Part shown: positions 9,037-42,460 of the stretch, in pieces | How the letters are laid out: each line of letters opens with the position of its first letter | Position numbering within the stretch: position 1 is the stretch's first letter | Assembly (NCBI GenBank): GCA_048499675.1 | Contig: JASNZL010000002.1 | Coordinates: 40,138-104,137, forward strand | Length of the DNA stretch: 64,000 nucleotides | Reading direction: 5' to 3' | Source: Candidatus Zambryskiibacteriota bacterium | GTDB taxonomy: Bacteria > Patescibacteriota > Minisyncoccia > Phycocordibacterales > WO2-35-19 | The notes under the pieces: model-generated | What the model was told of the DNA's origin: nothing | The model's input: the letters and a program-made list of their open reading frames with translations, nothing else | The model's database searches: none | Made by a program: the position numbers and the translations under genes

Positions 9037-9124
9037 GGAGAGTTGGCTGAGTGGTCGAAAGCGCCTCACTGCTAACGAGGTGAGCCCTTTAAAGGCTCCG
9101 AGGGTTCGAATCCCTCACTCTCCG
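9037..9124 (+). tRNA. tRNA-Ser (anticodon GCT)
   Basis: Cloverleaf: acceptor GGAGAGT/ACTCTCC, D-arm with GG, anticodon loop CTGCTAA, long variable arm GAGCC-CTTTAAA-GGCTC, T-arm CGAGG-GTTCGAAT-CCCTC, discriminator G; no encoded CCA. Confidence 0.8.
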
Positions 9125-9258
9125 CTTGAGCTTCGCGAAAGCGGAGAGTGAGGTCTAGCTTTTGTGCAACAAAAGCGTAAGACGGATTCGAAGCCCGATT
9201 GAGATTTTTTAGGAGGACAACGAACTAAAAAATCCAATTGGGGTACTGAAGCTGTAAG
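9125..9258 (+). repeat. 134-bp element directly 3-prime of tRNA-Ser; direct repeat of 14922-15055
   Basis: Near-identical (2-3 mismatches) to 14922-15055; starts with a hairpin pairing the tRNA acceptor 3-prime strand; ends ...ggggtactgaagctgtaag. Confidence 0.8.
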
Positions 9259-9259
9259 C

Positions 9260-9299
9260 TTCGAATCCCTCACTCTCCGCTTGAGCTTCGCGAAAGCGG
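9260..9299 (+). repeat. 40-bp duplicate of tRNA-Ser 3-prime end (T-loop to end) plus 20 nt downstream
   Basis: Identical to 9105-9144 (ttcgaatccctcactctccgcttgagcttcgcgaaagcgg). Confidence 0.85.
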
Positions 9300-9351: not shown

Positions 9352-9490
9352 ACGAATGACACTTGCGCCTCGCGCTCCCTTCGGTCGCGAACCAAAACCA
9401 AAAATTTCCTTACCAATCCTTTTTCGGCGGGGGGTGTGGGGGGAGCCGGCAAAAAATGGAAAGGAAAATTTTTGGTTTTGGTTCCGACGC
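9352..9490. repeat. left copy of an imperfect inverted repeat bracketing the 9.5-14.65 kb cargo; internally a 21-bp-stem hairpin with a G-rich loop
   Basis: Its reverse complement matches 14660-14795 (~85%); inner stem gaaccaaaaccaaaaatttcc / ggaaaatttttggttttggttc; loop contains cggcggggggtgtggggggagccggc. Confidence 0.75.
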
Positions 9491-9552
9491 TTCATAAATA
9501 CAGTATATGGCAATTTGGAATAATACACAATGGAATATTATTATATAAATAT

Positions 9553-14426: not shown

Positions 14427-14659
14427 GAGTTACCACGAACGCCGTCGAAGTCACAGAGCGAACACGAAGCAAGTACCGAGCAGGCATCGTGAGCGAATGC
14501 GAACGGCAAATGCGAGGTGATTGCGAAGTGTGAGCGGACGACAGAGCTATCACAAAACGCGGAGAGGAAGCGCCTCGCCCGACGCGAATGACGGAGAAAA
14601 GGACGGACGGAATATTGCCACCATGCTAAAATATACATACGAGTCCTTTTTGGAGGAAT

Positions 14660-14795
14660 GAAGCGGCGGAAACAAAACCATAAAATTTCCTTTCATTTTT
14701 TGAGCGGCTCCCCCCACACCCCCCGCCGAAAATGGATAGGTAAGGAAATTTTTGGTTTTGGTTCGCGACCGCAGGGAGCGAGGCGCGCACTGTTC
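14660..14795. repeat. right copy of the inverted hairpin repeat (partner of 9352-9490)
   Basis: ggaaacaaaaccataaaatttcc ... ggaaatttttggttttggttc stem with loop gagcggctccccccacaccccccgccg. Confidence 0.75.
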
Positions 14796-14921
14796 GCTTC
14801 ACCACGCCTGCCTGCGCCGAGGCTTCGGCAGGCAGGCAATCCGAGCGTACGATTTGGGTTCAAAGCCACCACGCGCTCCGCGCGTGCGAAGTGGGTTCGG
14901 GCAAAGGTTAGTATCTCACCG

Positions 14922-15055
14922 CTTGAGCTTCGCGAAAGCGGAGAGTGAGGTCTAGCTTTTGTGCAACAAAAGCGTAAGACGGATTCGAAGCCCGATTGAG
15001 ATTTTTTAGGAGGGCAACGAACTAAAAAATCCAATTGGGGTACTGAAACTGTAAG
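14922..15055 (+). repeat. second copy of the 134-bp tRNA-Ser-downstream element, followed by a tRNA-like 3-prime fragment with encoded CCA (15056-15079)
   Basis: cttgagcttcgcgaaagcggagagtgagg...ggggtactgaaactgtaag, then tttcgactcctgtcccatccacca, which parses as T-loop, T-stem 3-prime, 7-nt acceptor 3-prime, discriminator and CCA. Confidence 0.75.
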
Positions 15056-15094
15056 TTTCGACTCCTGTCCCATCCACCAAGTTTTACATTCAGC

Positions 15095-19038: not shown

Positions 19039-19053
19039 AAACAAAAATTAGTG

Positions 19054-19124
19054 TGCGGGTAGGGGTAATCGAAACCCCGACTCAAGTTTGGAAAACTCGC
19101 ATTTTACCACTAAACTATACCCGC
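19054..19124 (-). tRNA. tRNA-Gly (anticodon TCC)
   Basis: Reverse complement GCGGGTA-TA-GTTT-AGTGGTA-AAAT-G-CGAGT-TTTCCAA-ACTTG-AGTC-GGGGT-TTCGATT-ACCCC-TACCCGC-A. Confidence 0.8.
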
Positions 19125-19265: not shown

Positions 19266-19679
19266 ATGAAAAATATTTTTTTGGCGGTTGTTGCGACCAT
19301 TCTCTTTGTGGGGGTGCTTGCGACAGCTTTTAACTGGGCGCAGGAGAGACGCGTCCAGAAAATCGAACTGCGAGCCGGAGATCTCATCGATCTCCGCGTC
19401 CAGCGAGACGCGCCCGACTGGGAAAGCGGGTGCGTGGTCCATTTTACAGAGATGAGAGGGGTCTCTGGAATTGCCCTCTTACGAGCCGAGTCCGAAATGC
19501 CTCGCTCCGTGACACGCGTAGAACGTGTCGTCGGAGACAAGGTATTCTTGAAGGTTCTCTCCGAACCCTACGGCGAATTGGCAGATTACATCTGCCCCGC
19601 CGGAAGCACTTTTCAAATTGACCTCCATCTCGCCAAGGAGGCAAAGTACCGGACCCCAAAGGGAGTGCGGATGTACTGA
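19266..19679 (+). CDS. GC-rich (~58% GC) small secreted/membrane-anchored hypothetical protein, likely horizontally acquired
   Basis: Strong SD aaggaggt 7 nt before the ATG; N-terminal signal/TM (IFLAVVATILFVGVLATA); composition contrasts sharply with neighbours; perfect terminator follows. Confidence 0.55.
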   Translation: MKNIFLAVVATILFVGVLATAFNWAQERRVQKIELRAGDLIDLRVQRDAPDWESGCVVHFTEMRGVSGIALLRAESEMPRSVTRVERVVGDKVFLKVLSEPYGELADYICPAGSTFQIDLHLAKEAKYRTPKGVRMY

Positions 19680-30152: not shown

Positions 30153-30479
30153 ATACGAATTAACGAATTTAATAACGAATTGCTACCCGCCCGAAATACT
30201 ATCGTATATAAATGGCGGGCGGGCGAAAACTTTCACATATTAAGTATATCACAATCCCCATTTTTTAGCAAACCCCGTTAGAGATTTTATTTAGATATTT
30301 AGCGGATTAACTATATTTAGAGTCATATTTCCTGCTAATAACAAAAAACGAGAGAATTTAAATCTCTAACGGGACAATCCAAACTTTTAATAAGCGAAGA
30401 GACTATAAAAATTAGGGAAGCTGAGGTAATCCGAAGTGTATTAATTTCCCTTATTTTGAGCCATTTTCTTTCATTTTGC

Positions 30480-30508
30480 TTGACTTTTATATTGAATGGG
30501 TGTATAAT
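30480..30508 (+). promoter_or_regulatory. consensus sigma70 promoter: TTGACT, 17-bp spacer, TATAAT
   Basis: ttgact at 30480-30485 and tataat at 30503-30508 with an exact 17-bp spacer; 23 nt upstream of the first GC-rich cassette gene. Confidence 0.6.
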
Positions 30509-30530
30509 ATATGTAGATAGGTTAACCCCT

Positions 30531-31475
30531 ATGTACAAGCGGTTGGTAGCCCCAACCCTACTTGAAAATCACATACTGGCAACCCCAGAAGAAAGAAAAG
30601 TGAAAATGCCTACCACGATTATGATCGAGAATGGTCCGAAGTTGCAGATGGAAGTTGCAGAGGATTGCGTTGTATTCGCAGGTCGCTGCATCTGCCACCA
30701 GATCAACAAAAACGCCGAGGTCATGATTCAGAAAGCGAAGGCTGCCGGAAAGACCAAAATCGTTATCGTTGGTGACTGCGACGAGCACAACGGAAGAGAA
30801 GGCGAGATGTTGCAAGTGATGTCGGCAGCCGGCATAGAGTGCAAGTGGCTCTATGAAGAGACTTGCTTCTTGCGAGAGGTAATGCCCAACTTCTCACAAA
30901 CTGGCATCCGTCGGTTTGCGGAAGCCGAGGATTTCAGAAAGTTGCGAAACTTGCTCGACAAGATCGGTCGCCGAGTGTGGGACATCAAGCAGAAAATCAA
31001 GCACGAATCCACACTCCTCGCCGAGTACCCAGTGGTCGCGCAGGTTCAAGCAATTGAATCTCACGACCACAACTTCGAGTACGCAGCGGGTGAAGGGACG
31101 ATAGTGTTCAACGCACTTTTCGGCCATCGTGCGAACACTCTTGTCTCTGAAGTGAACTCGGTCGTTTTGTTCAATCTGGAAAACAAAACCGGATTGATCG
31201 TGACCAAGTCGCAGAGGTTCGATTTCTCCTTTGCTAATCCCGATGATTTCGAACTGAACATCTTTCAAGGCAAGGGTAAGAGTCAATTGGAGAGAAAAGG
31301 GTACACACGCGAAGGCTGTGGTTCCATCCGGGTGAATGTGGGTAAGGGCTCAACCGAGCTTTCCATCTACTGCAATCCTGGCGTGTGGACTGTGAAGCCC
31401 CACCCCGAACTCGACGTTACTGACCCAGACGTTCATTACGTCCCCATGTGGAAACGCGTGGAGAAGGTCAAGTAG
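30531..31475 (+). CDS. GC-rich hypothetical protein (foreign composition)
   Basis: ~52% GC against a ~33% background; start placed at the first ATG downstream of the promoter (MYKRLVAPTLL), since the track ORF start at 30456 lies upstream of the -35 box. Confidence 0.5.
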   Translation: MYKRLVAPTLLENHILATPEERKVKMPTTIMIENGPKLQMEVAEDCVVFAGRCICHQINKNAEVMIQKAKAAGKTKIVIVGDCDEHNGREGEMLQVMSAAGIECKWLYEETCFLREVMPNFSQTGIRRFAEAEDFRKLRNLLDKIGRRVWDIKQKIKHESTLLAEYPVVAQVQAIESHDHNFEYAAGEGTIVFNALFGHRANTLVSEVNSVVLFNLENKTGLIVTKSQRFDFSFANPDDFELNIFQGKGKSQLERKGYTREGCGSIRVNVGKGSTELSIYCNPGVWTVKPHPELDVTDPDVHYVPMWKRVEKVK

Positions 31476-31638
31476 CCCGCCAGTATAAAATCCGGTGACG
31501 AGCCGGTGTCCAACTTCGGTTGGGCTTCTACCAAAGTTTTTTAAAAAGAAAATTTTGGTGGGAGTAATCACACAAGCAAGAATACTTACCGTGTGAAAAA
31601 CCAAATTGGGATAGTTCTATTTGGAAAGGAGAAAAGAC

Positions 31639-32055
31639 ATGCCGACCTGGTTGGATATGTTGAGTATTGAAATGGAGAACATGGACGCGACCAAGTTAAT
31701 CGAACCGCCTCACGAGGTGGATCCCAGCCGCGACCACGTTGTTTGCAAAGCCGAAGAAGCTCTTTGCAAGTTGTACAGCTTGGCTATGCAGTTTGAGAAA
31801 GAAGCCAACGTAGCGTTGATTAACGCTCGCTACTCCGGTAATCTCAACGAAATCAAGGATGCCCTTGAAAACGGTGCTCGGCTCATGAAGAAAGTGGAGA
31901 CCCTTCGGGAGATTTTTTGGATCTCCCTGAAGGATAACCACGATCTATGGAACAAGCCTTCCGTCGGCATCCGTCGGGGTTGGAAGGTGGTCTGGAGCGA
32001 TTCGGATCCGATGCCCGATATCCGGGACATCATCAGTGGACTTTTCGGACGCTGA
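31639..32055 (+). CDS. GC-rich hypothetical protein
   Basis: SD ggaaaggag 8 nt upstream of ATG (MPTWLDML...); 139 aa. Confidence 0.5.
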   Translation: MPTWLDMLSIEMENMDATKLIEPPHEVDPSRDHVVCKAEEALCKLYSLAMQFEKEANVALINARYSGNLNEIKDALENGARLMKKVETLREIFWISLKDNHDLWNKPSVGIRRGWKVVWSDSDPMPDIRDIISGLFGR

Positions 32056-32072
32056 CAAAAGGAGGTGATTTT

Positions 32073-32180
32073 ATGGCCGGATTCGGTTCTCGTGGTGGTC
32101 TCCGCAATGTTGGAGCATCCCGCAAGGATGTTCCGGAGCGGAAGACCTCGCCACCGACTAAGACCAAGCCCAAGTCGTAA
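32073..32180 (+). CDS. small basic protein (35 aa)
   Basis: SD aaaggaggtg, 6-nt spacer, ATG; MAGFGSRGGLRNVGASRKDVPERKTSPPTKTKPKS; followed by a terminator. Confidence 0.35.
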   Translation: MAGFGSRGGLRNVGASRKDVPERKTSPPTKTKPKS

Positions 32181-32216
32181 AAAATGGGTTTGATACACCA
32201 CGAAAGGAGGTGAAAA

Positions 32217-32248
32217 ACAGACTGTTCTTCGGAACAGTCTTTTGTTTT
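32217..32248 (+). terminator. rho-independent terminator closing the GC-rich cassette
   Basis: acagactgttc-ttcg-gaacagtct then tttgtttt. Confidence 0.65.
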
Positions 32249-32266
32249 ATGTTATATTTTTAATCA

Positions 32267-32452
32267 ATGACTATACTATCTCACAAAAAAATATTTATAC
32301 TGGGAGATGGTGGTAGAGGTAAAACTACCTTTGCCAAAAAGCTATCTGAACATACAGGAATACCTTTCTACTCAACAGATGATTTTTTCTGGAAAGTTAA
32401 ATTTACTGTTCCAAACGACAGAGAAAAAAGCGTTCAAATAGATTTGGATTAG
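32267..32452 (+). pseudogene. truncated P-loop kinase (topology-modulation/adenylate-kinase-like) fragment
   Basis: 61 aa KKIFILGDGGRGKTTFAKKL...IPFYSTDDFFWK matches only the N-terminus of ~170-aa family members; downstream DNA has no intact frame. Confidence 0.45.
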
Positions 32453-33957: not shown

Positions 33958-36141
33958 ATGCAGAAACTAAGTGATTTAAAAAGGCAGTTTTTGGAATATA
34001 TAGAAATTGAGAAAGGTCGTTCGCTTTTAACTATAGAAAACTACGACAGATATTTAACTCGTTTTTTGGAATTTTTGAAAAGCGAAGAACCAAAAGATAT
34101 AAATGACAATTCTGTTAGAGAATTTCGTCTTTGGCTCAATAGACAACCGGCAAGTAAAATAAAGAAAAATGCAGACACCTTGTCTCGTAGAACACAAAAC
34201 TATTATCTAATTGCTCTTCGCGCCTTTCTCAAATATCTTGCAAGACAAGGAGTTACTTCCCTATCGCCCGAAAAGATAGAGCTTGCCAAGACCCCAGAGA
34301 GATCTCTTGACCTAATCACAGACGACGAGCTTATTCGCCTCCTCAAATCCCCTTCTGGCGACAGTTTGAAAAGTTTGCGGGACAGAGCGATGTTACACCT
34401 CCTTTTTTCTACCGGTCTTCGTGTTTCTGAACTTTGTGCTCTTGACCGCGATATAGATTTAAAAAAAGACGAGCATTCTATTCGAGGAAAAGGTGGGAAA
34501 ATAAGGGTGGTTTTCTTTTCGGATGAAGCCAAGAAAGCTTTAAACGATTATTTAGAAAAAAGAAAAGACCTAAACGATGCAATGTTTATCCAACTTTCAA
34601 AAAATTTAAAACCAAATGCAAAAGGCGAAGATATGCGAATAAACAAACGCAGTGTCGCAAGAATTGTAAAACAATACGCCATCAAAGCCGGAATTTCCAA
34701 AAAAGTAACCCCGCATACACTAAGACATTGTCTCCACCCAGATACACTTATTCATTTGCCTTACACCATAACAAGCGCAAGGGAACTATATTTGTCCAAC
34801 ACAAAAAGAATAACATCGGTAGACCTTAATGTTGGGAAAACCGTAAAATCAAACATAATTCAAAAGAGAAAATATAAATCACTTGATATGATTTCTCTTT
34901 CTGCTAATGGTTATCAAATTTCTGTTACTCCAGACCACAAATTTTTTACTCTTGGAACAGATGGAATAGTGGAAATTAATGCAAGAGATATAAAGAAAAA
35001 TCAATTCATTGCTGGTGTTAAGAAAATAACAATGAATAGTTCAAAAAAATCAAGAAGTAAAAACAATTGGAGAATAATTGGTTATATTTTGGAGGATGGA
35101 ACAATAAGTGAGAAGAGGCGGGGGGTCATAATTTCTGATAAGAATCCAACTTTTATAGAATTTTATAAAGATTTAATTACTTCAGAATATAAACATAAAC
35201 CAACAATAAAAAAAATAGAAGGCGCAAATAATGTTATTTTAAATTTTTATTCAAAACAATTTGTTACTTATTTGAGAAAAATAGGAATAACAGAGAAATC
35301 ACCTCTCAGAAGAGTTCCTAAAATTTTATTCTCCCAAAGCAAAGAAGTTATAGCAGAATTTTTGGCTGGATATTACGACGCTGAAGGAAATGAGGGTAAT
35401 TCTATTAAATTTTTCTCTTCAAGTGAAATGCTTTTGCGAGATATTCAAATGTTATTATTAACTTTCGGGATTGATTCTCATTTATATAAAAGATTGAGGA
35501 GAGTAAAACTACCAAAAGGAAAAATTATAAGCCACAAAATGTTATATCTACAAATATTACACAAACCAGATCAGGAACTTTTTATTAAGATTGTTCCCAC
35601 CCTAAAAAAATTAAAAGCAAAAAGCTTTTTTGCAGGGGATAAAATTCCAGTCAGAAATATGTTAAAAGACATATATATAAATCTACCAAAAAAATGGCAC
35701 AATTTTGCTCAATATCTAAAAATAGATGGGAAAATTGATATATATAGATATGTTGGTAACACAACCAAAACAGTCCCCACAAAGAAAGTTTTGGAAAAGA
35801 TAATCAAATATTTTAGAGATGCTAAATGTAATGACCCGAGATTAGATTTTATGCAAAAACTCATTGATTCTGATATTCAGTGGCTTAGGGTTCAAAAAGT
35901 TGAAAGGTGTAAATATAATGGACCAGTATATGATTTCGCTGTAAATAAATATGAGAATTTAATAACAAACGGTTTTTTGTCGCACAACTGTTTTGCGACT
36001 GACCTTTTAAGCAATGGTGCTGATCTTCGCTCCGTTCAAGCTCTACTCGGCCACGCAAATATAGGCACAACTCAAGTTTACACCCATGTCACAGACCGCC
36101 ACCTCCGCGACATCCACAAAAAATTCCATAACAAAAAGTAA
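33958..36141 (+). CDS. XerC/XerD-family tyrosine recombinase interrupted by a 420-aa intein with LAGLIDADG homing endonuclease
   Basis: N-terminal SAM-like domain, catalytic region ...[19 protein letters not shown]...TPHTLRH, then CLHPD...[11 protein letters not shown]...[13 protein letters not shown]...GFLSHN, then [34 protein letters not shown]. The host exteins sum to ~307 aa. Confidence 0.85.
34729..35988 (+). mobile_element. intein (Cys1 ... His-Asn, then +1 Cys) with two LAGLIDADG motifs
   Basis: 1260 nt in frame; begins TGT directly after HTLRH and ends CAC AAC directly before TGT TTT GCG ACT. Confidence 0.8.
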
Positions 36142-36251: not shown

Positions 36252-37256
36252 ATGAAAAACGAACACAACAAATTACAAAGTATTGTCATTTATAAAGACA
36301 AGAAAGGTAATGTTGAACTAAAAACCGATATTCAAAAAGAAACAATTTGGGCAACTCAGGACCAGATTGCTTTTCTTTTTGGTACAAAAAGGCCGGCAAT
36401 TACAAAGCACTTACAAAACATCTTTAAATCAAACGAATTAAATAAGAATTCAGTTAGTTCCATTTTGGAACATACTGCAAGCGACGGAAAGAAATACAAA
36501 ACCCAATTCTACAACTTGGACGCGATGATTGCTGTTGGATATAGAGTAAACTCAAAAAGAGCTACTCAATTTCGTATCTGGGCAACCAAAACGTTGAGAG
36601 ATTACATAATCAAAGGTGTTGCTATAAATACCGAAAGAATAAAAAAATTGCATGAAGCAGGACTCAAAGATTTGCAAAACAAAATTGAATTTATTCAAAA
36701 CACTATTCAAAAAAGAGAACTGGATAAAGACGAGATCCAGAGTCTTTTGTCTGTCATAAAGGATTATGCAAACTCCTGGACCACTCTCAAAGAATATGAC
36801 GAGGGTGATATTGTAATCAAAAAAAGCAAAAACAAAGAGAGAAAAATTTTTGATTATGAATTTGCCCGTAAAGCAATCGATGAATTAAAAATAAACCTTG
36901 TTAACAAAAAAGAAGCGGGTGATTTGTTTGGTAACGAAAGAGATGAAACATTCAAAGGCATTCTAAAAACAATTTATCAAACATTTGACAGCAAAGAGCT
37001 ATACGCGAGCTTAGAAGAAAAAGCTTCTCATTTGTTGTATTTTATAATCAAAGACCATCCGTTTTCTGATGGAAACAAAAGGGTTGGTTCTCTTTTGTTC
37101 ATTTTATTTCTAGAAAGAAATAATATTTTACTTAGAAAAAATGGGGAAAGAAAAATAAACGACAATACTCTTGTTGCCCTTGCCCTCTTGGTTGCCGAAA
37201 GCAATCCTAATGAAAAAGAAACAATGACTGCTTTAATTACAAACCTTTTGATTTAA
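36252..37256 (+). CDS. RhuM-family N-terminal domain plus Fic/Doc domain protein
   Basis: YNLDAMIAVGYRVNSKRATQFRIWATKTLRDY (RhuM-like) and a C-terminal Fic motif HPFSDGNKRVGS. Confidence 0.75.
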   Translation: MKNEHNKLQSIVIYKDKKGNVELKTDIQKETIWATQDQIAFLFGTKRPAITKHLQNIFKSNELNKNSVSSILEHTASDGKKYKTQFYNLDAMIAVGYRVNSKRATQFRIWATKTLRDYIIKGVAINTERIKKLHEAGLKDLQNKIEFIQNTIQKRELDKDEIQSLLSVIKDYANSWTTLKEYDEGDIVIKKSKNKERKIFDYEFARKAIDELKINLVNKKEAGDLFGNERDETFKGILKTIYQTFDSKELYASLEEKASHLLYFIIKDHPFSDGNKRVGSLLFILFLERNNILLRKNGERKINDNTLVALALLVAESNPNEKETMTALITNLLI

Positions 37257-37403
37257 AAAATTAAAACAAAAAGGCGCCAGAACTTGTCTGACGCCACCCA
37301 CTGTTATTTTTTAGTGGGTTTTGGTTTGGGAGCAGGCTTTTCCTGCTCCCGTGTCCAGTAAGGCTTTCCGCGCCCACTGGAGCCAGAATTGGCGTATGGC
37401 ATC

Positions 37404-37790
37404 CTATTCACCCCCTTTCTTTTCAAGCTTTACCAAGGTTCCTGCACCATCATTGAACCTTGCTAGAACCCTGCTTTTGAGAAGTTTTATAACCTCTTCG
37501 TTTATTTTTGTGTTGCAATCCAAGACACGATCTTCGTCCAGGTAAAGAATTTCCCGAACAAGCTTCTCGGGAAGTTCGAGGTTCTTCTCAAACACCTCAA
37601 AGAATTTCCCCTTTAAATCCTTTTGCCAACTTGAGCTCTGGCACTGGAGGCAGTAATCCAATTTGACTCCCAGCTCCTGCAACTCAACCAGAGTTCTCTG
37701 GACTCGAAAGAAATCGTCCGCGGAAACTTCCTCGAAAACTGCCTCGAGAGCGAAGAAACCAATACCTTCAAGACTGAGAGCGATTCCCAT
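37404..37790 (-). CDS. hypothetical protein
   Basis: SD aaaggagataat before ATG (MGIALSLEG...); moderately GC-enriched. Confidence 0.4.
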   Translation of the reverse strand: MGIALSLEGIGFFALEAVFEEVSADDFFRVQRTLVELQELGVKLDYCLQCQSSSWQKDLKGKFFEVFEKNLELPEKLVREILYLDEDRVLDCNTKINEEVIKLLKSRVLARFNDGAGTLVKLEKKGGE

Positions 37791-38264
37791 ATTATCTCCT
37801 TTTCTCAAAGAACTTAGGGATTTCTCCCTAGTAAAATTCGTTTTGTTTACGGATCTTGCTAGGGAGGGCGATTGCTTTTAGGTAATCGCCCTATCTTGCG
37901 ATGATTCCTCAGGGAGAGTCAATCAACATACTGACCCTGTACCCCCTTGGCTTTTGCTATTCGCTCGGCTTCCGCACTAGGTCCTCGAGCAGTTTGTTGG
38001 GTTTGGCTTTTTCCCCTTCGCTCAACAAACCATGTTTAGCCGCAGACTCCGTCCGCCACCTGCAACCGCATCGCAAACGGAAGGCAAATTCGTCAAAGAA
38101 CTTTGTTTTACTTCTGTATCCATTATAGCAAATTTAATGTAAATAGTCAAGCACTATATCTAAACTTTAAACTAAATAAACCTTTATTTACAATGGTTTT
38201 TTGTTATATACAAGATAATAGTCAAAAATATTGACTATTTTTACGCTCTTGATATAATATAACT

Positions 38265-42168: not shown

Positions 42169-42460
42169 TTCAAGTATAAAAATATACTTGTATATAATTT
42201 AGCATAAATATTTTTATTAACAAAATCAACTTTTGGATAAAAATGACAAATCATACCAAAAGACTAAAAGTATTATAGAATTTACGAACAAAAAGTAATA
42301 TAATTAACTTAGTGTCTTTATGGTCTAGTAGACCTTATTTATCAACATAACTGTGGATAACTTTGGGGACACTGTGTATAAGTCAAAGTCAATAGATTTA
42401 ATATATGGCTTAAAATAAGGATTTATTGAAAAGACAGACTTTTACACAGTCCTATAATTA

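Follow-up and report, generated by a model that had tools for sequence, protein, structure and literature searches.

The locus considered here raises the question of why a short GC-rich stretch under a near-consensus promoter should lie within an AT-rich chromosome of Patescibacteria/Saccharibacteria type, and whether it was acquired as one unit or put together from several. Within the window, the whole 64,000-nt stretch of DNA that was analysed, positions 30480-32248 have a GC content of 49.1% (50.2% for 30531-32180) against 35.1% for the remainder, thus the contrast reported in a preliminary description holds, whereas its exact values (52% against 33%) do not. Base composition shifts abruptly at 30.5 and 32.25 kb. 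The two larger genes, ORF1 and ORF2, have GC contents by codon position of about 0.53/0.35/0.65, and their third-position value (GC3) of 0.65 against 0.26 in 11 long host genes bears out the earlier claim of a foreign composition beneath a host-type promoter. There are four further GC-rich patches in the window, at 8.9-9.5, 14.3-15.4, 19.3-19.7 and 37.3-38.1 kb, so the islet at 30480-32248 is not unique.

The islet is a patchwork of two unrelated orphan genes, best read as horizontally acquired. The reading that is favoured, with a probability of roughly 0.6, is that two independent modules from a GC-rich mobile gene pool have come to lie in a single promoter-to-terminator unit. Module 1 (about 30449-31570) would consist of a promoter, a leader of ~95 nt, a 289-aa protein and a 3' element, forming a self-contained unit that recurs elsewhere, and module 2 (31625-32065) would be the first gene of a cassette that elsewhere continues with a 94-aa gene, an Mpa-like AAA ATPase and DUF1360, here severed exactly at the Shine-Dalgarno site of the second gene of that cassette. 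At the level of sequence comparison the anatomy of the modules and their independence of one another are established.

Both modules would be transcribed together, starting at a single consensus sigma-70 promoter and ending at a single intrinsic terminator, the features of the islet all lying on the forward strand. The predicted promoter (30480-30508) has TTGACT at 30480-30485, a 17-nt spacer and TATAAT at 30503-30508, which agrees at 11/12 positions with the TTGACA and TATAAT hexamers, 16-18 nt apart and upstream of a transcript, that define the sigma-70 type, and it is the best-scoring promoter site of the region. It takes the form TTGAC(A/T)-17-TATA(A/C)T in 11/11 ORF1 loci, with its position relative to the leader constant. 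A box, CCTTATTTTGAGCC, is found at 30449-30462, 17 nt 5' of the -35 hexamer; boxes near-identical to it precede the ORF1 promoter in four related loci (L007, L012, L014, L016) and a copy with 1 mismatch is present on the reverse strand at 42407-42420, 14 nt upstream of another TTGACT. At the other end a predicted Rho-independent terminator (32219-32248) has a stem-loop at 32219-32240, with a stem of 9 bp, of which 4 are GC pairs, and a 4-nt loop, directly followed by the T-run TTTGTTTT. The promoter and the clean terminator were both pointed out in the preliminary description and both stand, as do the Shine-Dalgarno sites that it placed before ORF2 and ORF3, which are of AGGAG type and lie at 31626-31631 and 32060-32065, respectively.

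The three frames of 314, 138 and 35 aa listed previously are present in the islet, although the start of the first was misplaced. ORF1 runs from 30606 to 31475 and encodes a 289-aa orphan protein, with the first 25 codons of the longer reading being translated non-coding leader. An N-terminal extension or leader peptide (residues 1-25) was rejected because the frame of the leader is inconsistent among relatives: an ATG upstream, at 30531, shares the frame of ORF1 in the window, P0010 and P0025, the leader is in another frame in L001, L007, L012 and L014, and the ATG is lacking in L004, L013 and L015. Furthermore, paired substitutions in the leader alter the would-be peptide yet preserve the helices.

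The family of ORF1 is an orphan one and very rare: a search of 5.8 billion clusters gave 13 relatives, and one of 1.84 billion proteins gave 21 representatives. The relatives occur in islets of ~50% GC, at different sites, on Saccharibacteria-like contigs whose hosts have 35-46% GC. A final profile search gained no named or more distant relatives, and scans of genomes and metagenomes each gave only an already known locus. The protein is modelled by AlphaFold with a pLDDT of 90.9 (73 in an earlier model) as an N-terminal alpha/beta domain, a 37-residue helix and a C-terminal beta-rich domain. The best E-value in a sequence-profile search of the PDB was 0.28, and Foldseek searches with both models against the PDB and the viral structures of BFVD found nothing at E<1e-3, giving sub-threshold partial matches only; among these is a likeness of the first ~80 aa to the STAS/anti-sigma-antagonist fold, at E about 0.01. 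A catalytic metal site was considered and rejected, as the Cys, His and Asp residues of close relatives are lost in distant members. Neither ORF1, ORF2 nor ORF3 has a significant match in Pfam, PHROG, PADLOC or NCBIfam, and by PADLOC, PHROG and Pfam none of the three corresponds to a known defence or anti-defence gene. Judging by dN/dS, which is 0.18-0.30 for ORF1 and 0.14-0.39 for ORF2 (0.14-0.30 for both genes once the most distant ORF2 comparisons are set aside), the two genes are under purifying selection. The Shine-Dalgarno of ORF1 in the window is degraded, being AAGAAAG where relatives have AAGGAG, so this copy may be poorly translated. An accessory or conflict-type role, and not a housekeeping one, is suggested by the rarity of the ORF1 family, its recombination and its occurrence on islands.

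Between the -10 hexamer and the ORF1 Shine-Dalgarno lies a conserved structured leader (30515-30605, ~95 nt), found in that place before ORF1 in 11/11 loci. It forms three hairpins, P1 (30517-30532), P2 (30536-30564) and, after an A-rich linker, P3 (30576-30588), which is followed by the degenerate Shine-Dalgarno. An invariant UGG-NARCC-CCA caps the last two (UGG-UAGCC-CCA in P2 and UGG-CAACC-CCA in P3), with P3 abutting the ribosome-binding site, and P1 bears a degenerate third copy, GG-UUAACC-CC. The corresponding TGGNARCCCCA occurs exactly 2 times in the window against 0.15 expected, and within 135 kb of related loci and the 64-kb window it is found solely in front of ORF1 genes. Each fetched ORF1 locus has two copies, the exception being L016 with one exact copy and one variant with a one-base insertion. 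The leader and the 3' element described below are the most distinctive features of the islet and were overlooked in the first reading.

Conservation of the leader sits in the loops and closing G-C pairs, and the stems covary. In an alignment fitted to a covariance model 92.8% of cells pair and 7/19 pairs have compensatory changes, a combination reached by 0/500 shuffles and with slid controls only 29-52% paired; as the 11 sequences include several close kin and were fitted to the model, these statistics are supportive and not conclusive. The same hairpins are obtained when divergent members are folded one at a time by minimum free energy, and the divergent loci L004, L013 and L015 retain the structure through compensatory changes rather than sequence. 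On this pattern of substitutions, structural covariation is present both here and in the 3' element. A structure kept by compensation at a fixed place relative to a gene is what is generally looked for in a structured cis-regulatory RNA, and we infer that the leader is most likely one. In a different group of loci (L001, L007, L010, L012) the leader is 95-97% identical to that of the window where neighbouring coding DNA is 40-60% identical and coding-region dS is 0.6-0.85; this near-identity among five loci could be partly due to recent recombination instead of selection. The regulatory logic is not evident, as the predicted hairpins leave the Shine-Dalgarno free, L015 excepted. The loops have no self-complementarity and no alternative switching fold is apparent.

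Rfam was scanned with the window, related loci and a phage copy that is introduced below, using both the gathering threshold and E<=10. Rfam 15 gives 0 matches to the leader at E<=10, nothing for six leaders from related loci or for the phage copy, and chance-level matches to eukaryotic miRNAs and snoRNAs only across 30300-32400. A search of the literature found nothing relevant.

In the favoured reading of two modules, one effector would recognise both UGG-NARCC-CCA caps, either a protein, possibly an ORF1 oligomer, or a small ligand. Its binding would set initiation of ORF1 translation because the second capped hairpin lies 2 nt upstream of the Shine-Dalgarno. A narrower alternative, which we regard tentatively as a possibility, is that the hairpins are protein operators, most simply for ORF1 itself, which would form an oligomer through its 37-residue helix and regulate its own translation. 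The restriction of the motif to the upstream regions of ORF1 and its degenerate third copy in P1 are consistent with this, as is the long helix of the predicted structure, which is typical of oligomerisation. However, ORF1 has a pI of 6.5 and is thus not basic, it has no recognisable RNA-binding fold, and a similar twin hairpin occurs in phage contigs that have no ORF1 relative.

The phage copy also bears on the alternative that the effector is a small molecule. The twin-motif pattern gave 12 matches in IMG/VR, of which 7 are not credible: six were dismissed as tandem repeats in coding sequence or as isolated chance hits, and that in L024 was dismissed as it is on the untranscribed strand. A credible second context is provided by five contigs of one marine phage, where a similar twin hairpin is found in the 5' UTR of an unrelated gene, although it gets no score from the covariance model built on the ORF1 leaders. 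The leader might then be a small-molecule riboswitch resembling guanidine-II, with ORF1 an enzyme or binding protein for the ligand, an analogy we think unlikely to hold. The conserved loops and closing G-C pairs, the covarying stems, the strict tie to one gene family and the second hairpin abutting the Shine-Dalgarno would all suit a riboswitch, and the phage hairpins before an unrelated gene mean that the effector need not be ORF1. Set against this, no known riboswitch family matches, the loops and folds offer no sign of switching, and the loss of Cys, His and Asp in distant relatives of ORF1 gives no sign of an enzyme.

It is a speculative and rather unlikely extension that the UGG-NARCC-CCA twin hairpin represents a new class of riboswitch or RNA sensor, built like guanidine-II but with other loops and shared by ultrasmall Patescibacteria and at least one marine T4-like phage, with the ORF1 family a protein of new fold acting on the same signal or responding to it. 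If this is true, the GC3 of the ORF1 family, which is stable at ~0.65 in AT-rich hosts despite saturated synonymous divergence between copies, would be due to selection, or to a mobile reservoir that is itself GC-rich and dedicated to such genes, and not to recent transfer alone.

Directly after ORF1 is a second structured element (31476-31570) with hairpins at ~31492-31506, 31510-31523 and 31524-31565. It folds with a minimum free energy of -35.7 kcal/mol (z = -4.5), and the consensus fold has 28 pairs, of which 10 are compensatory, from 4 sequences. It is kept in L001, L010 and L012, has shorter forms in L007, L014 and L016, and has no match in Rfam 15. As it has no T-run, transcription would read through into ORF2.

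The genes after the 3' element differ between the window, L001 and L010, and ORF1 itself appears in two parts: positions 30643-30867 are 85-95% identical to L010, and 31120-31236 are 90-98% identical to L001 and 88-97% to L007. By this mosaic of identities, the ORF1 of the window is a recombinant of two lineages. By analogy with mobile cassettes of phages, it could be proposed that the promoter with its leader and the 3' element are mainly handles for homologous recombination with little regulatory role; the recombinant ORF1, the exchange of genes downstream and the high identity of both ends against a low middle are all in keeping with this. We consider it quite unlikely, as the structure of the leader in L004, L013 and L015 is kept by compensation, which handles do not need.

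ORF2 (31639-32055, Shine-Dalgarno AAGGAG at 31626-31631) encodes an acidic protein of 138 aa from a family of 9 proteins. Positions 31625-32065 have 81% nucleotide identity to L017 and L018, with the protein 84% identical. In L017 and L019 the ORF2 homologue is the first gene of a cassette and is followed by a gene of 94-98 aa, an Mpa/ARC-like AAA ATPase and DUF1360, and in L017 this cassette forms an island of 55-63% GC with serine recombinases and an integrase on its flanks. The homology between the window and the L017 cassette extends no further than 32065, where the Shine-Dalgarno of the second cassette gene lies. ORF2 relatives are followed by the 94-98-aa gene and the ATPase, never by ORF3, and among the fetched loci ORF2 and ORF3 are absent beside all ORF1 relatives. 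Toxin-antitoxin pairs (ORF1/ORF2 or ORF2/ORF3) were considered and rejected, as adjacency of the partners is not conserved.

Following this junction is ORF3 (32073-32180), 35 codons with a predicted pI of 11.6 and a Shine-Dalgarno at 32060-32065, which by the alignment to L017 is a remnant of the second gene of that cassette, now deleted. No homologue was found among the fetched loci, the sole scope of the search, and its GC content hardly differs among codon positions (0.56/0.61/0.58), in contrast to ORF1 and ORF2. A 14-nt direct repeat, AC(A/G)AAAGGAGGTGA, is present on either side of ORF3 (32055-32068 and 32200-32213). ORF3 is probably not a conserved gene and most likely a by-product of the junction between modules. 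The earlier suggestion of a small anti-defence or nucleic-acid-binding peptide finds no backing in PADLOC, in the fetched loci or in its codon-position GC.

The preliminary description had viewed all three frames as a single cassette of recent phage or host-bacterial origin, in which ORF3 would be a functional small basic peptide. One promoter and one terminator do enclose the three ORFs, strong Shine-Dalgarno sites precede ORF2 and ORF3, and ORF3 is strongly basic. We regard such a unitary operon as highly improbable, since ORF1 and ORF2 are never together elsewhere, and ORF3 has neither a homologue in the fetched loci nor a coding-type composition and owes its Shine-Dalgarno to another gene. 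There is also no PADLOC match, and no relatives of the islet were found in 50,697 phage records or 72,556 plasmids (searched by blastn and tblastn) or in IMG/VR, which likewise has no relative of ORF1. The proposed source finds no support, and all relatives are in Patescibacteria-type contigs. Horizontal acquisition itself is still the best reading, given the GC3 contrast and the occurrence of the same genes as GC-rich islets at unrelated sites in several independent assemblies.

Some of these relatives adjoin serine recombinases or integrases: in L012 and L017 they are adjoined by serine recombinases, an integrase and a primase, with genes of an integrative element next to the ORF1 unit in L012. 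tRNA genes lie directly upstream of the ORF1 unit in L004 and L007. In the window the islet is placed between rpsO and a truncated gene for a P-loop kinase. Within the window there is no integrase in the islet, no target-site duplication, and no terminal, direct or inverted flanking repeats delimiting it, the nearest recombinase being an intein-bearing Xer-type enzyme at 33958-36141, about 1.7 kb away. That the locus is an artefact, either a chimeric assembly, a GC-rich non-coding RNA with spurious ORFs or a true 25-codon extension of ORF1, can hardly be credited, since the abrupt shifts of composition and the in-frame upstream ATG are outweighed by the GC-rich gene recurring within AT-rich flanks in many independent assemblies, by dN/dS of 0.14-0.39, by an ORF1 model with pLDDT 91, and by a leader whose frame and ATG are not kept and whose paired substitutions spare the helices. 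Misassembly in particular is very unlikely, as recurrence across independent samples would indicate.

Two modules of this kind are of interest on several grounds. Patescibacteria have tiny genomes, and to our knowledge very few regulatory RNAs have been described in them; a covarying leader tied to one orphan family is a testable candidate for a new cis-regulatory RNA. The ORF1 family, which is modelled with confidence and matches nothing significantly by sequence or fold in the libraries searched, is well suited to structural and functional study. The persistence of GC-rich cassettes in genomes of 35-46% GC, with synonymous sites saturated between the copies, is the reverse of the usual pattern of AT-rich islands, and is relevant to the maintenance of the flexible gene pool in these epibionts. 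For annotation, the start of ORF1 is corrected, the "operon" is split into two modules and ORF3 is flagged as doubtful.

The islet resembles genomic islets and the cargo of integrative elements in its foreign composition, its variable insertion sites and the tRNA neighbours seen in L004 and L007. Genomic islands are usually AT-richer than their host, whereas this islet is GC-richer; it is only 1.8 kb in length, and has deviant composition without a recombinase, att-type repeats or a target duplication. The setting of ORF2 recalls Mpa/ARC-type AAA ATPase operons, as the ATPase of L017 and L019 scores 3e-99 against the proteasome-ATPase model TIGR03689, although this is below the cut-off of that model. 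The window lacks the ATPase and the operon's other genes beyond the ORF2 homologue, and ORF2 matches no family, the resemblance being one of context among its relatives only.

For the leader a close parallel is the guanidine-II (mini-ykkC) riboswitch, which has two small hairpins whose conserved caps, each an ACGR tetraloop, jointly bind a ligand, and which precedes genes for SugE/EmrE-type exporters and carboxylases. The likeness lies in a tandem pair of small hairpins within a 5' UTR, conserved loops and closing pairs, covarying stems and a second hairpin beside the ribosome-binding site. The leader differs in having NARCC pentaloops (UAGCC and CAACC) and an extra 5' hairpin, and is always followed by the orphan ORF1 and not by a guanidine exporter or carboxylase. 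Membership of guanidine-II was rejected, as it has neither the ACGR loops nor the guanidine genes, nor any Rfam match at E<=10. The NAD+-II riboswitch (pnuC motif) has two ACANCCCC repeats, and the leader too has two strings of A-R-C-C-C-C type near the ribosome-binding site. Here, however, there is no Rfam match or pnuC context, and the repeats cap hairpins instead of forming the strands of an internal loop or pseudoknot.

A final comparison is with the PeSL elements of T4-type phages, mobile regulatory cassettes of a promoter and a stem-loop that are shuffled by recombination. Both have a conserved early-type promoter and stem-loop ahead of variable ORFan genes, with a mosaic content driven by recombination. 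In contrast to PeSLs, the islet lies in a bacterial chromosome, the structure of its leader is kept by compensation, and one gene family always follows.

The islet at 30480-32248 is a real feature and consists of two modules that are independent of each other, laid out in the order promoter, structured leader, ORF1, structured 3' element, ORF2, ORF3 and terminator. Its GC content is 49.1%, with 50.2% in the ORF-bearing core (30531-32180), against 35.1% for the other 62 kb of the window, and the contrast with the host is sharpest at synonymous sites, with GC at codon positions 1/2/3 of 0.53/0.35/0.65 in ORF1 and 0.53/0.36/0.66 in ORF2, compared with 0.47/0.35/0.26 in 11 long host genes. The promoter (TTGACT-17-TATAAT, 30480-30508, + strand) agrees with the consensus at 11 of 12 positions and is the best of the promoter-like sites in the region. 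Three ORFs, of 314, 138 and 35 codons, are present, the latter two with AGGAG-type Shine-Dalgarno sites, and a clean terminator, a 9-bp stem followed by a T-run, lies at 32219-32248 (+). The preliminary description was essentially right on these features, the measured GC being slightly below its value, whilst its reading of a horizontally acquired, coherent three-gene cassette was partly right as to acquisition and wrong as to the coherent cassette. The stretch that separates rpsO from the islet promoter holds a 19-nt inverted repeat (30274-30292 / 30355-30373; 89% complementary, arms 62 nt apart). At the islet's right edge a 61-aa ORF (32267-32452, +), probably a truncated pseudogene, has no more of an AAA_18/AAA_17-type kinase than its N-terminal P-loop part.

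ORF1 is a real and very rare protein. A search of 5.8 billion protein clusters gave 13 relatives at 43-100% identity and a profile search of 1.84 billion representatives gave 21, none with a Pfam domain or an informative name, and the last profile search brought no additions. The aligned relatives start at the methionine of MPTTIM (position 30606), the 25 codons before it being conserved at the DNA level but in a different frame in the relatives on contigs L001, L003 and L007, so that they are leader and not protein; ORF1 itself is thus 289 aa (30606-31475). Pairwise dN/dS points to purifying selection on both ORF1 (0.18-0.30 against eight relatives, where synonymous divergence is measurable) and ORF2 (0.14 against its relative on contig L017). 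AlphaFold, with a 28-sequence alignment, predicts an N-terminal alpha/beta domain, a 37-residue helix and a beta-rich C-terminal domain (pLDDT 90.9, pTM 0.81). Searches of Pfam, PHROG, PADLOC, NCBIfam and PDB sequences turned up nothing significant, and in a Foldseek search of PDB and BFVD the first ~80 residues resemble STAS-like folds at sub-threshold level only. A catalytic metal site is not proposed, as the Cys/His/Asp motifs that are invariant in close relatives are gone from distant ones. On sequence comparison the window's ORF1 is a recombinant, with 30643-30867 being 85-95% identical to the copy on L010 and only 35-65% to that on L001, and 31120-31236 being 90-98% identical to L001 and only 57-78% to L010, a mosaic that fits a gene family recombining in a shared pool.

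The contigs carrying ORF1 relatives have typical Patescibacteria content, one record being titled Candidatus Saccharibacteria, and the neighbourhoods of the gene are mutually unrelated. It is found near a ribosomal-protein operon and pilus genes in L001, between a thioredoxin-reductase-like gene and tsaD and directly following a tRNA in L004, after a tRNA in L007, adjoining def and fmt in L011 and L014, and adjoining a serine recombinase, an excisionase-like HTH gene and a primase-like gene in L012. The family gene has 51-54% GC (GC3 0.53-0.68) in a background of 35-46% GC at these loci, with the exception of L015, where it has 42% GC and a GC3 of 0.44, the same as its flanks. Because this pattern recurs in independent assemblies, a chimeric contig, the concern raised in the preliminary description, is excluded for practical purposes. 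The copies differ widely, or to saturation, at synonymous sites (dS 0.6 to >2) and are therefore not the product of one recent transfer; the family may have diversified in a GC-richer reservoir that AT-rich hosts tapped repeatedly, or its GC3 may be selectively maintained. In L010 four further ORFans of ~50% GC lie downstream of ORF1, with a remnant of one kept in L001. ORFans of ~50-56% GC without a Pfam match lie near ORF1 relatives at 2259-4522 of L010 and 2447-2935 of L007, a hint that these genomes draw on a larger pool of orphan cassettes rich in GC.

At the 5' end of the first module all 11 of 11 ORF1 loci have TTGAC(A/T)-17-TATA(A/C)T and, behind it, a leader of ~95 nt. In the window the leader (30515-30605) forms hairpin P1 (30517-30532, AUAGG-UUAACC-CCUAU), an extended P2 (30536-30564) capped by UGG-UAGCC-CCA and followed by an A-rich linker, and P3 (30576-30588, CUGG-CAACC-CCAG), after which comes the Shine-Dalgarno region. 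In the window the 11-mer TGGNARCCCCA has exactly two copies, where chance would give 0.15, and in the fetched loci with an ORF1 homolog it is confined to the front of that gene with two copies per locus (in L016 one exact and one with a one-base insertion); it was not found in ORF2-type loci. The window leader is 95-97% identical to those of L001, L007, L010 and L012, whereas in the early coding region identity to three of these falls to 40-60%. The divergent leaders (L004, L013, L015) keep the helices with different sequences, examples being CAAGC.../...GCUUG, CUAGC.../...GCUAG and GUGCGU.../...ACGCAC. In an alignment fitted to the model, on which the statistics depend, 92.8% of pair cells hold standard pairs and double changes are seen at 7 of 19 pairs, values that 0 of 500 shuffles reach, whilst slid 3' partners give 29-52% pairing; the same hairpins emerge independently when the leaders of the window, L013 and L015 are each folded singly. 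Rfam gave no family match for the leader, even at E<=10. No conserved peptide can begin at the upstream ATG (30531), as its frame relative to ORF1 varies and it is absent from L004, L013 and L015.

A second structured element directly follows the ORF1 stop (31476-31570) and is common to the window, L001, L010 and L012, with the order GCCAGUAUAAAAUCCGGUGACGAGCCGGUGUCC, a hairpin, GGACUUCYACC, a further hairpin and GGUGGGAGUAA, and a shorter form that ends in a terminator is found in L007, L014 and L016. Its consensus fold has 28 pairs, 10 of them with compensatory changes among four sequences, and for the window copy the folding energy is -35.7 kcal/mol (z = -4.5). In these alignments structural covariation marks both RNA elements. 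As no T-run follows the window's 3' element, read-through into ORF2 would be expected.

The leader would regulate ORF1 after the start of transcription. Its invariant parts are two hairpin caps, with a degenerate third cap in P1, and the last cap is 2 nt from the Shine-Dalgarno, which in the window is degraded (AAGAAAG, AAGGAG in relatives), so that this copy may be weakly translated. The effector might tentatively be a protein, possibly an ORF1 oligomer, this being slightly likelier than a small ligand, which is a doubtful candidate. That the conserved ends have a purely recombinational role is less likely still, since divergent copies preserve structure rather than sequence.

Judged by gene order and homology, ORF2 (31639-32055) belongs to a cassette other than that of ORF1. 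It has 9 relatives, whose source labels include one Candidatus Kerfeldbacteria and one Woesearchaeota, and shares 84% amino-acid identity with those on L017 and L018 (81% at the nucleotide level over 31625-32065). In L017, L018 and L019 its homolog is the first cassette gene, followed by a 94-98-aa gene, a 577-675-aa AAA ATPase (Mpa/ARC-like; 3e-99 against a proteasome-ATPase model, below the model's cut-off) and DUF1360. The L017 cassette is an island of 55-63% GC in a contig of ~40% GC, with two serine recombinases and a tyrosine integrase at its flanks; the GC-rich cassettes occupy 5001-8349 of L017 and 5001-8687 of L019, the latter with two tandem ORF2 paralogs. Homology to L017 stops at 32065, exactly at the Shine-Dalgarno of the missing second cassette gene, and ORF3 (32073-32180, 35 codons) uses this inherited site. 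ORF3 has no similarity to the 94-aa cassette gene or to anything else in the fetched loci, its GC is flat over codon positions, and a 14-nt direct repeat of the junction sequence (stop plus Shine-Dalgarno) stands on either side of it. It is probably a junction by-product; the likeness to small nucleic-acid-binding or anti-defence peptides proposed in the preliminary description is unsupported, a pI of 11.6 being the sole property in favour of any function.

A pattern scan of IMG/VR found one marine T4-like phage, on five contigs (L020, L021, L026, L028, L031), with two CUGG-UAACC-CCAG hairpins in the 5' UTR of an unrelated 389-aa gene without a Pfam match, the first hairpin capping a 13-bp outer stem. 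Repeats within coding sequence, wrong-strand hits and isolated matches due to chance account for the other seven. The phage hairpins stand after a TATAAT-like box (e.g. L028 2518-2600), and the gene has a 728-aa gene without a Pfam match on one side and an AAA_5/CbbQ-type ATPase gene on the other. They match no Rfam family, our covariance model gives them no score, and they are a lead and not a member of the leader group.

The islet is not unique, as four other GC-rich patches are present in the window. Two non-coding segments of 50-63% GC are repeated between two other islets, one directly (9118-9268 and 14915-15065, 151 nt, 96.7% identity) and one inverted (9365-9495 and 14658-14786, 132 nt, 91% identity). 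Neither has a consistent ORF or belongs to an Rfam family, and the first copy adjoins tRNA-Ser (9037-9125). A 137-aa ORFan (19266-19679, +; 55-58% GC) with a hydrophobic N-terminus and no Pfam match adjoins tRNA-Gly (19053-19124), and a patch of 47-52% GC (37300-38100) following a RhuM/Fic gene (36252-37256) holds a 134-aa ORF (37404-37808, -), also with no Pfam match. A Xer-type tyrosine recombinase (33958-36141, +) is split by an intein with a LAGLIDADG homing-endonuclease domain. The cumulative GC-skew minimum is at ~41-42 kb, DnaA-box-like 9-mers cluster locally at 42232-42381, and the CCTTATTTTGAGCC box recurs there with one mismatch, 14 nt ahead of a TTGACT; the stretch 42232-42420 may be a replication origin region.

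The value of the islet lies in an unclassified leader RNA and a rare protein family without a fold match in the libraries searched. In its manner of working the leader would be closest to small tandem-hairpin riboswitches such as guanidine-II, although it lacks the ACGR loops, gene association and Rfam score that define that class. The islet itself behaves as the cargo of integrative elements does, but with no recombinase or att repeats for it in the window, and it is unusual among such cargo in being GC-richer than its host.
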